Source: Escherichia coli (GTDB taxonomy: Bacteria; Pseudomonadota; Gammaproteobacteria; Enterobacterales; Enterobacteriaceae). Taken from it: 64,000 nt of DNA. Location of the stretch: assembly GCF_003334405.1 (NCBI RefSeq), contig NZ_QOWM01000001.1. One strand, 5' to 3'. Below the pieces are notes generated by a model. The model was not told where the DNA came from. It searched no databases and was given only the letters and a program-made list of their open reading frames with translations. Both the position numbers and the translations under genes were made by a program. Below, one piece after another: positions 7,275-8,857 of the stretch; position 1 is the first letter of the stretch; each line of letters starts with the position of its first letter.

Positions 7275-8051
7275 ATGTCCGAAACAAAAAACGAACTTGA
7301 AGACCTGCTGGAAAAAGCAGCAACTGAACCGGCGCACCGCCCGGCCTTTTTCCGTACTCTACTGGAATCCACCGTCTGGGTGCCTGGTACGGCGGCGCAG
7401 GGCGAGGCTGTGGTTGAAGATAGCGCGCTTGATTTACAGCACTGGGAAAAAGAAGACGGCACCAGCGTCATTCCTTTTTTCACCTCGTTAGAAGCACTTC
7501 AACAGGCGGTTGAAGACGAACAGGCATTTGTCGTAATGCCCGTTCGCACGCTGTTTGAGATGACACTTGGCGAAACGCTCTTCCTTAATGCCAAACTGCC
7601 AACCGGTAAAGAATTTATGCCGCGTGAAATCAGTTTGTTGATTGGTGAAGAGGGAAATCCGCTGAGCAGCCAGGAAATCCTGGAAGGCGGTGAATCGCTG
7701 ATATTATCGGAAGTCGCAGAGCCGCCAGCACAAATGATTGATTCACTCACCACCTTATTTAAAACCATTAAGCCGGTGAAGCGTGCTTTTATTTGTTCAA
7801 TTAAAGAGAACGAAGAGGCACAGCCTAATTTACTTATTGGCATTGAAGCCGATGGTGATATCGAAGAAATTATTCAGGCGACGGGAAGTGTAGCGACCGA
7901 TACATTACCTGGCGATGAACCAATCGATATTTGTCAGGTGAAAAAAGGGGAAAAAGGAATTAGCCACTTTATTACCGAACATATTGCGCCATTCTATGAA
8001 CGTCGCTGGGGTGGTTTTTTGCGTGACTTTAAACAGAATCGGATAATCTAA
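7275..8051 (+). CDS. sseB: SseB (enhanced serine sensitivity protein)
   Basis: ORF 7266-8051 trimmed to ATG 7275 (258 aa, MSETKNELEDLLEK). Confidence 0.93.
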   Translation: MSETKNELEDLLEKAATEPAHRPAFFRTLLESTVWVPGTAAQGEAVVEDSALDLQHWEKEDGTSVIPFFTSLEALQQAVEDEQAFVVMPVRTLFEMTLGETLFLNAKLPTGKEFMPREISLLIGEEGNPLSSQEILEGGESLILSEVAEPPAQMIDSLTTLFKTIKPVKRAFICSIKENEEAQPNLLIGIEADGDIEEIIQATGSVATDTLPGDEPIDICQVKKGEKGISHFITEHIAPFYERRWGGFLRDFKQNRII

Positions 8052-8054
8052 AAT

Positions 8055-8080
8055 ATGCCGCCCAAAGGGCGGCATTCGGG
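8055..8080. terminator. bidirectional intrinsic terminator (sseB 3' end / small-ORF transcript 3' end)
   Basis: Hairpin atgccgccc-aaa-gggcggcat with U-rich flanks on both strands. Confidence 0.6.
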
Positions 8081-8081
8081 C

Positions 8082-8219
8082 TTACTTGCTGCTCTGAAGG
8101 TTGTTAACCACCAGTAAATTGTCGCCGGAGAGACTCCGGTTATTATTTACCTCGGTTAACAGCGCACCAGAAACAATAAGTACGATACAAAAGCACCGTA
8201 TCTTCATTGTGCGGTCCAT
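8082..8219 (-). CDS. small hydrophobic protein, candidate type I toxin-like (41 aa from ATG 8207, or 45 aa from ATG 8219); ryfA/timP-like
   Basis: Hand-translated minus-strand ORF (M)DRTMKIRCFCIVLIVSGALLTEVNNNRSLSGDNLLVVNNLQSSK*; hydrophobic N-terminal segment; absent from the >=60-aa ORF track; weak SD; location matches the ryfA locus between sseB and sseA as I recall it. Confidence 0.5.
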   Translation of the reverse strand: MDRTMKIRCFCIVLIVSGALLTEVNNNRSLSGDNLLVVNNLQSSK

Positions 8220-8335
8220 GCGAAGACCGCATCACGACAGCACCACTGGCGATATTGCCGCGATAGCAAGCGCTGTGAAACACCTGCATTTACGGCCACG
8301 GAACATCCTTTCCTAAAGCCAGCGCCCGTTTGCGA

Positions 8336-8532
8336 GACGGCGGAAAGGGCCGCAGTGGATAATACACTAACAGAACAATAATAACTCTCTTTTGCTTGAC
8401 AAAAAGAGAGTTACTGGCGAGTATTGTCTCCGCTGAGACGCGCTTGCATTACTACGGTAATACAACCTGCTGGAAAGGCCGCGAACCGGACCAGCAACAA
8501 AAAACCGCCTGATTTTGGCGGTTTTTTGTTTT
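8336..8532 (+). repeat. tandem duplicated sRNA-like module, copy 1
   Basis: About 195-bp unit beginning acggcggaaagggcc..., sharing ctctcttttgcttgacaaaaagagagttactgg and cctgctggaaaggccgcgaacc blocks with copy 2. Confidence 0.75.
8433..8532 (+). ncRNA. candidate small RNA (copy 1; diverged sibling), approx. bounds
   Basis: TTGACA at 8396-8401 with weak -10 about 17 bp downstream; strong intrinsic terminator aaaaaaccgcc-tgatttt-ggcgg + ttttttgtttttt (8498-8534); ryfB/ryfC-type by location. Confidence 0.4.
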
Positions 8533-8752
8533 TTAAAGGAAAGTGAATTTACATGTTTAAGTAATATCTTTTACCGGTTAGAATTTTTAATTTTGAGCAG
8601 GATTTGTTTATATTTGTCTGAATTCGGACTAATAAGCCAGGTTATTTTATTACCGAACACGGCGGAAAGGGCCGGTGTCGATAATACGCTAAATAAACAA
8701 TAATTACTCTCTTTTGCTTGACAAAAAGAGAGTTACTGGTGAGTATTGTTTT

Positions 8753-8857
8753 GCTGTGAAGCACCTGCGTTGCTCATGTAACACAAGTCAACCTGCTGGA
8801 AAGGCCGCGAACCAGACTAGCAATAAAAAACCGCCAAATTCGGCGGTTTTTTATTGC
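8753..8857 (+). ncRNA. candidate antitoxin-type small RNA (copy 2), approx. bounds
   Basis: Predicted 5' end gcugugaagcaccugcguu is complementary, with 2 G-U wobbles, to the small-ORF mRNA leader (plus-strand 8270-8291); terminator 8825-8856. Confidence 0.45.
8825..8856. terminator. bidirectional intrinsic terminator (sRNA copy 2 / sseA)
   Basis: aaaaaaccgcc-aaattc-ggcgg-tttttt with A-tract upstream; directly downstream of sseA stop on the minus strand. Confidence 0.7.

Follow-up and report, generated by a model that had tools for sequence, protein, structure and literature searches.

The window analysed here, a stretch of 64,000 nucleotides of Escherichia coli DNA, carries an open reading frame (ORF) on the minus strand at 8082..8219, between sseB and sseA. 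An earlier note, made from the letters of the sequence, had described this ORF as a toxin-like small protein. The ORF listing gave the same ATG-start frame of 45 aa, MDRTMKIRCFCIVLIVSGALLTEVNNNRSLSGDNLLVVNNLQSSK, letter for letter, and independent translation confirmed the two ATG codons at 8219 and 8207, the in-frame TGA five codons upstream of the first ATG, and the stop codon at 8082-8084, which is TAA. The strongly hydrophobic N-terminus was also reproduced: the Kyte-Doolittle mean was 2.86 for residues 5-17 of the 41-aa form starting at the second ATG, and -0.68 for residues 18-41, the polar C-terminal half. As the note had stated, the SD is weak, being a UGGA that ends 7 nt before the AUG at 8207 within the 3' arm of a 7-bp hairpin, and a terminator lies just past the ORF, its hairpin (8055-8075) starting 6 nt beyond the stop codon. 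The ORF had further been called unlisted. This was not the case, since MG1655 has timP (b4812) and RefSeq has timP here in 25 of the 25 listed E. coli genomes.

Several other features share the 841-nt spacer between sseB and sseA. In plus-strand coordinates, the order is timP on the minus strand, a proximal TimR-like gene on the plus strand, the IS128 RNA on the minus strand, and the distal TimR gene on the plus strand. The whole spacer was 100% identical in several E. coli chromosomes, including those of clinical and animal isolates.

Identification of the frame and its transcript

The coding sequence of timP (8082..8207, minus strand) consists of 41 codons and TAA and reads MKIRCFCIVLIVSGALLTEVNNNRSLSGDNLLVVNNLQSSK. 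When the 45-aa ORF was compared with the NCBIfam family NF040796 (toxic_TimP), a score of 86.4 bits was obtained against a cutoff of 45 (E 1.1e-24), and profile positions 1-40 of 40 aligned to residues 5-44, i.e., from the second ATG. The ryfA family of Rfam (RF00126) matched 8050..8353 on the minus strand with 314.9 bits against a gathering score of 80, over model positions 1-296 of 296 and without truncation. This 304-nt RNA, which equals ryfA b4440 of MG1655, is the timP mRNA and comprises a 5'UTR of 146 nt, the ORF at +147..+272, and the terminator. The MG1655 annotation contains ryfA b4440, timP b4812 ("putative toxic protein TimP"), and timR b4811. The TimP of the window was identical to the products of b4812 and of RefSeq WP_001380605.1, and the WP_001380605.1 coding sequence of one identical genome mapped to 8082..8207 of the window.

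Subsequently, the peptide was compared with TimP of Salmonella enterica, which was retrieved by a profile search built from a 10-sequence alignment. The Salmonella peptide has 38 aa, MKIRCFCIVLLVSGALCLHADRSYSGNFAPVTRNVQSR, and its Ala20-Asp21 and Leu18 agree with the published description (PMC7667032). The comparison with it, which the earlier note had proposed as a check, gave 59% identity, and 15 of the 16 N-terminal residues were the same. TimP peptides have 38-42 aa, a start of the form MK(I)R, a hydrophobic, signal-like stretch of about 17 residues, and a polar C-terminal half, and the 41-aa peptide of the window shows all of these traits; M1, K2, C7, I8, V12, G14, and V33 were invariant in the 10-sequence alignment. 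Taken together, the NCBIfam, Rfam, MG1655, and Salmonella comparisons all agree with the proposal of a TimP-type toxin on ryfA between sseB and sseA. Judged from these sequence comparisons, the ORF at 8082..8207 is very probably timP, which encodes the toxin of timPR, an enterobacterial toxin-antitoxin locus of type I, and lies on the ryfA transcript of about 300 nt. The finding is correct but already known, as timP was described in 2020, its mechanism has been dissected since, and the gene is annotated in MG1655 and RefSeq. It shows that a toxin gene of fewer than 50 codons can be recovered by a reader working from raw sequence.

To the 3' side, the intrinsic terminator of timP/ryfA (8055..8075, minus strand; stem of 9 bp with 7 GC, loop of 3, ATTTT tail) is common to the convergent sseB gene. 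At the 5' end, a promoter scan selected TTGTCA-16-TATTGT (8402-8375), which would put the timP 5' end approximately 15 nt upstream of the annotated one. The numbering used for Salmonella, in which the ORF begins at +145 and site 2 lies at C57-G59, fits a 5' end near 8351-8353; accordingly, TATTAT at 8359-8364 is favoured as the candidate -10 element of timP. The upstream region is part of a module that occurs twice in the spacer (see below). In both copies, GCTTGACA has on its two sides the arms of a perfect inverted repeat of 12 nt, TAACTCTCTTTT / AAAAGAGAGTTA (8382-8413 and 8706-8735), and here the -35-like hexamers TTGACA of the plus strand and TTGTCA of the minus strand share almost the same base pairs.

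Orthologous loci were collected by scanning contigs with a pattern for the hairpin that contains the SD-like element, GCGGTCNNNGCANNGACCGCAC. At least 120 stretches matched, mostly from unrelated high-GC genomes, the pattern being a GC-rich palindrome. Fifteen usable enterobacterial loci were found among the matches listed, to which three E. coli lineages were added; no Salmonella locus was among the matches listed.

Leader folding and the TimR genes

The minimum free energy (MFE) fold of the timP 5'UTR reproduced the four stem-loops known from Salmonella: SL1 at about nt 6-47, SL2 at nt 67-88, SL3 at nt 90-123, and SL4 at nt 124-143. SL4 (8211..8230, minus strand; GCGGUCU/GGACCGC) matches the SD-sequestering SL4 of Salmonella (PMC11228461). 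The UGGA at 8215-8218, the only SD-like element, is located in the 3' arm of this 7-bp GC-rich hairpin, and the first ATG is also inside SL4. In the alignment the invariance of SL4 was imposed by the search pattern and is therefore uninformative on the conservation of SL4 or on its covariation with site 2 (sites 2-4).

A pseudoknot between SL1 and SL3 was examined in the same fold. Site 1, CGCUGGC in the upper part of SL1 (8318..8324, minus strand; nt 30-36), pairs with site 3, GCCAGUG in the SL3 loop (8244..8250, minus strand; nt 104-110), which corresponds to the SL1-SL3 pseudoknot of Salmonella (PMC11228461). About two lone 7-bp matches are expected by chance between such segments according to our estimate, and two were found; since a lone match of this length is thus expected, covariation is what counts. 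In an alignment of 12 sequences, the pseudoknot helix was 100% paired and three of its seven pairs had changed on both sides. The whole structure was 94% paired in the 12 sequences, compared with 38-50% when the partners were slid. Furthermore, nt 57-62 (GGCCGU) can pair with nt 124-129 (GCGGUC) by six pairs, two of them G:U, as read from the sequence, with the SL4 side fixed by the search pattern. Conservation of this pairing between site 2 and the 5' flank of SL4 (site 4) has been reported (PMC13000454).

Two genes for TimR-like RNAs were located upstream of timP. The distal copy (8753..8852, plus strand), placed by coordinate mapping from MG1655, is timR b4811, the antitoxin sRNA, with a terminator T-run about 95 nt downstream. 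Its 5' end, GCUGUGAAGCACCUGCGUU, pairs with timP nt 64-82. The target site in SL2 (8271..8290, minus strand; nt 64-83), which varies among lineages, is complementary to this 5' end over 19-20 nt. The proximal copy (8431..8530, plus strand) is divergent from timP and unannotated in MG1655, and its start was placed by homology to the distal copy. The matching of the TimRs was scored by counts of contiguous stretches and by site-restricted duplexes. SL2 formed 19-20 contiguous pairs with the distal TimR (site-restricted duplex, -37.3 kcal/mol) and 11 with the proximal TimR-like RNA, for which the site-restricted duplex was still -33.1 kcal/mol. Whole-molecule RNAduplex runs of timP against the TimRs were dominated by long spurious pairings; with energies no better than those of shuffled controls, they were uninformative. 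Relative to the timP 5' end at 8353, the two TimR-like genes are both situated upstream, so that an antitoxin gene overlapping the toxin gene, as in the hok/sok type, was not found and timPR is here not a classical cis-antisense type I locus. TimR and timP are complementary because the SL2 site exists a second time, as a separate short copy that forms the 5' end of TimR.

The two TimR-like genes belong to a tandem-duplicated module of promoter plus sRNA in the spacer between timP and sseA, in which 8337-8427 corresponds to 8659-8749 (90%) and 8463-8526 to 8789-8852 (84%). The duplicated copy of the timP promoter module transcribes the IS128 RNA (8485..8693, minus strand; Rfam RF00125, 262.1 bits). 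The 5' portion of IS128, about 40 nt, resembles the 5' end of ryfA, and the remainder is AT-rich and unrelated to it. Over its last 46 nt, IS128 is a perfect antisense of the proximal TimR-like RNA, covering the 3' end and terminator of the latter. IS128 may be what is left of a second copy of ryfA, comparable to the pair ryfA1 and ryfA2 of S. dysenteriae. Its being a decayed second timP was considered and set aside as unproven: only the first 40 nt or so are ryfA-like, and its main ORF, which has 29 aa, a GTG start, and a polar composition, is unlike TimP. The sole difference from MG1655 in the 841-nt spacer, at position 8606 (G here, A in MG1655), falls inside IS128.

Proposed control, coding capacity, and start codon

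The following working of the locus is taken over from Salmonella (PMC7667032, PMC11228461, PMC13000454) and is accordingly worded as a proposal for E. coli. The timP transcript would be made constitutively and mostly in an inactive fold; with its weak SD buried in SL4, the primary transcript is expected, from the Salmonella work, to be mostly translationally silent. Translation would need the SL1-SL3 pseudoknot and the pairing of the upstream segment with the 5' flank of SL4, which would free the SD for 30S binding. TimR, an sRNA of about 100 nt from the same intergenic region, would use its 5' end to bind SL2 in the active conformer, disrupt the pseudoknot, and block initiation. If TimR were depleted, TimP would be made and inserted in the inner membrane, probably by Sec and with an uncleaved signal sequence, and a leaky membrane and growth arrest would follow. 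In the K-12-type locus, the best-matched TimR is the distal copy (8753-8852), with the imperfectly matched TimR-like gene (8431-8530) adjoining timP. In Salmonella, inner-membrane localisation of TimP and toxicity that depends on the start codon were observed on overexpression (PMC7667032), TimR represses timP translation and the toxin is made once TimR is removed (PMC7667032, PMC11228461), and expression of Salmonella timP in E. coli causes toxicity as well (PMC13000454).

The cited literature on ryfA/timP in E. coli reports neither detection nor toxicity of the E. coli TimP peptide (PMC8205139, PMC13188913), and the main alternative is that ryfA in E. coli acts mainly or only as a regulatory RNA, the TimP frame having no functional translation and being a relic or preserved through the overlapping RNA structure. 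Three experimental results speak for this alternative. In uropathogenic E. coli (UPEC) CFT073, ryfA alleles with a destroyed ORF still complemented all phenotypes of the ryfA mutant (PMC8205139); in avian pathogenic E. coli (APEC), loss of timR had minimal effect (PMC13188913); and no protein was detected from ryfA1 of S. dysenteriae (PMC5333039). The ORF region is also heavily base-paired, both in the fold and in the Rfam consensus. The complementation result, however, shows that the tested phenotypes are RNA-mediated, not that the peptide is absent, and a dual-function RNA would satisfy both data sets. The UPEC, APEC, and S. dysenteriae results are compatible with such a dual-function RNA and leave room for a peptide; because of them, we keep the functional claim for timP in E. 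coli below certainty.

Conservation of the reading frame bears on the same question. The earlier note had named frameshifts or stops in orthologous loci as the observation that would speak against its reading; instead, the frame was open, with 38-42 codons, in 17 of 17 loci from Escherichia, Citrobacter, Superficieibacter, Yersinia, Rahnella, and Erwinia. All length differences among these loci were indels of whole codons, even though 41-67% of the residues differ across the six genera, and outside Escherichia the identity to the window peptide was 33-51%. Nei-Gojobori dN/dS was 0.07-0.54 in most pairs of different genera and well below 1 in the Yersinia, Rahnella, and Erwinia comparisons; timP of Y. 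aldovae and Y. similis, for example, differed by 14 synonymous and 5 non-synonymous changes. These observations, together with an N-terminal stretch of 16 residues nearly identical to that of the proven Salmonella toxin, argue against an RNA without a functional frame.

The comparison within Escherichia was less one-sided. Seven alleles were used, namely the window (8082-8207, minus strand) and the loci L124, L125, L126, L028, L048, and L100. Among these seven there was no clear coding signature, as the polymorphic sites were distributed 6/7/5 over the codon positions and the pooled pN/pS was 0.94, which favours the regulatory-RNA explanation. Against it, the N-terminal half is constrained within Escherichia too, with a pN/pS of 0.48; the value for the C-terminal half was about 2.9. 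In ST131, the substitution S27F stems from one of two mutually compensatory changes in an RNA hairpin within the ORF (CCGGAGUCUCUCCGG -> CCGAAGUCUCUUCGG), so that a change compensatory for the RNA alters the peptide. In the C-terminal half, conservation of the RNA structure seems no weaker than that of the peptide. Sporadic disrupted alleles of timP were seen, for example in S. sonnei without the N-terminus and in E. albertii without the start. Considering both sides, we regard a purely or mainly regulatory ryfA as unlikely, though it is the alternative to be taken most seriously, and prefer timP as a coding gene.

Regarding the start of the timP product, the earlier note had left two candidates; both ATG codons exist, but support was obtained for the one at 8207 and not for the one at 8219. 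The rival product is the 45-aa form from the first ATG, as assumed for CFT073 (PMC8205139). The ATG at 8219 (8217..8219, minus strand) is in frame with an in-frame stop five codons upstream, and it is present in Escherichia, Citrobacter, Superficieibacter, and most Yersinia. On the other hand, it reads AAG in Rahnella, Erwinia, and Y. similis, a variation that is unbiased because those two bases were left free in the search pattern. It lies inside SL4 and overlaps UGGA, the only SD-like element, and on reading the sequence no purine-rich, SD-like stretch was present before it that could serve as an SD of its own. The ATG at 8207, in contrast, follows SL4 by one base (ACAAUGAA) and was conserved in 17 of 17 loci. 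The TimP profile aligns from residue 5 of the longer form, and RefSeq and EcoCyc both place the start at 8207. Furthermore, the Salmonella start was shown to be +145 by an ATG-to-AAG mutation (PMC7667032); 8207 is +147 and 8219 is +135, and the Salmonella start thus corresponds to 8207. The upstream ATG is therefore very unlikely to be the start, and the sequence data support the 41-aa form from the second ATG, because only the ATG at 8207 is conserved. This settles the start at 8207 (41 aa) against the 45-aa form given in some E. coli papers.

Finally, it can practically be dismissed that the frame is a chance ORF unrelated to TimP: short ORFs are plentiful, 51 of at least 20 aa overlapping the surrounding 3.5 kb, so that a length of 45 codons is not beyond chance and the significance of the frame rests on homology and cross-genus conservation, but the profile, RNA-family, annotation, and cross-genus evidence contradicts a chance origin.

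Relation to known systems and variation of the pairing segment

The closest known system is TimP/TimR of Salmonella enterica (Andresen et al. 2020, PMC7667032), which is orthologous; both loci lie beside sseB, and in both TimP is encoded on an mRNA of the ryfA family. The ORF is equally far from the 5' end (+147 here, +145 in Salmonella). The hydrophobic N-terminus is shared (15 of 16 residues), whereas the C-terminal half has diverged, giving 59% identity overall, and the peptide has 41 aa here and 38 aa in Salmonella. The Ala20-Asp21 motif of the signal-peptide prediction in Salmonella is not conserved here, where LLTEVN is found. The layout of SL1-SL4, the pseudoknot, and the SD-sequestering SL4 are the same as those described for Salmonella (Eleftheraki & Holmqvist 2024, PMC11228461; Eleftheraki et al. 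2026, PMC13000454), and in both species SL2 is the partner with which the 5' end of TimR pairs. Unlike in Salmonella, two TimR-like genes and the IS128 RNA are found between timP and sseA in the K-12-type locus, and the better-matched TimR is located 398 nt upstream, compared with about 77 nt in Salmonella.

RyfA1 and RyfA2 of S. dysenteriae, with RyfB1 and RyfB2 (Fris et al. 2017, PMC5333039), belong to the same RNA family as the ryfA of the window. There too a divergent sRNA of about 100 nt is complementary to a short "variable region" of ryfA, and a few nucleotides set the specificity. The duplicated promoter/sRNA modules of the window resemble this two-copy layout, the two having been compared by description. 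The window differs in having one full ryfA/timP; its second module drives IS128, with about 40 nt that are ryfA-like and no TimP frame.

In the chromosomal type I systems tisB/istR-1, zorO/orzO, shoB/ohsC, and dinQ/agrB, a small hydrophobic inner-membrane toxin is combined with an antitoxin encoded apart from or divergent to the toxin gene. The antitoxin sRNA pairs with the 5'UTR of the toxin mRNA and not with the whole ORF, and the fold of the mRNA blocks co-transcriptional translation (summarised in PMC11228461). By analogy, timPR would share the traits of this class: an inner-membrane toxin, an sRNA pairing with the 5'UTR, and an inhibitory mRNA fold. Weak Rfam matches to this group on the terminators of TimR and IS128 were far below the gathering scores, and there was no sequence relation to ohsC, OrzO-P, or AgrB. 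In contrast to these systems, Salmonella timP works without ribonucleolytic processing, by a purely structural switch of pseudoknot and SL4 opening, and Salmonella TimP has a Sec-type signal sequence instead of a plain transmembrane helix (PMC7667032, PMC13000454).

We also compared the pairing segments of timP and TimR among lineages. The SL2 site and the TimR 5' end co-varied in 11 of 17 loci, with all six genera represented. The 5' end of the proximal TimR-like RNA of the window was identical to the TimR 5' end of ST131 and strain 042, and it matched the timP SL2 sites of ST131 and 042 perfectly over 17 nt; O157 had a third matched pair of SL2 and TimR. The cognate TimR started 64-80 nt upstream of timP in 11 of the 16 other loci, the K-12 type with its 398 nt being the exception. 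The remaining five of the 16 were three deletion loci, one locus with a match of only 12 nt, and one without a match of at least 12 nt. Among 5,426 complete E. coli genomes, the SL2 of the K-12 type occurred in 1,975, the distal TimR 5' end of the K-12 type in 2,020, and the proximal-type TimR 5' end in 4,546, each being a marginal count.

A tentative and rather improbable reading of these data is that the timP-TimR pairing segment is a swappable specificity allele in E. coli, with a two-antitoxin K-12 type and a repeat that is a deletion hotspot. On this reading, the K-12 type, at about 36% of the complete genomes, would join a timP SL2 matched to the distal TimR with an adjacent TimR of the ST131/042 type. 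Two antitoxin RNAs of different specificity would then stand over one toxin, with IS128 antisense to the adjacent one. Being present as a direct repeat in the DNA, the pairing segment would also be a hotspot for deletions in which both promoters are lost. If the reading were true, the locus would be an example of antitoxin-specificity turnover within a species, and if the two TimRs were unequal in activity, or one of them were titrated by IS128, an unrecognised extra layer of control would exist. Only the two-TimR arrangement and the deletion hotspot may go beyond the cited timPR papers.

Deletions between the pairing segments were directly visible in three genomes. C. amalonaticus AUH_CA_2023_1 (L105:8040-8196), Y. 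similis (L073:4534-4690), and Y. aleksiciae (L103:5272-5428) lack the approximately 150-160 nt that separate the 5' pairing segment of TimR from the SL2 site. The C. amalonaticus deletion allele sits at the canonical locus between sseA and sseB. In all three, the deletion removes both promoters and SL1 and brings the body of TimR directly into antisense orientation to the timP leader, whereas the ORF remains intact. In C. amalonaticus and Y. similis, the junction falls within a direct repeat of 16-20 nt whose two copies are the 5' end of TimR and the SL2 site of timP. This suggests that recombination between the pairing repeats recurs and silences the locus.
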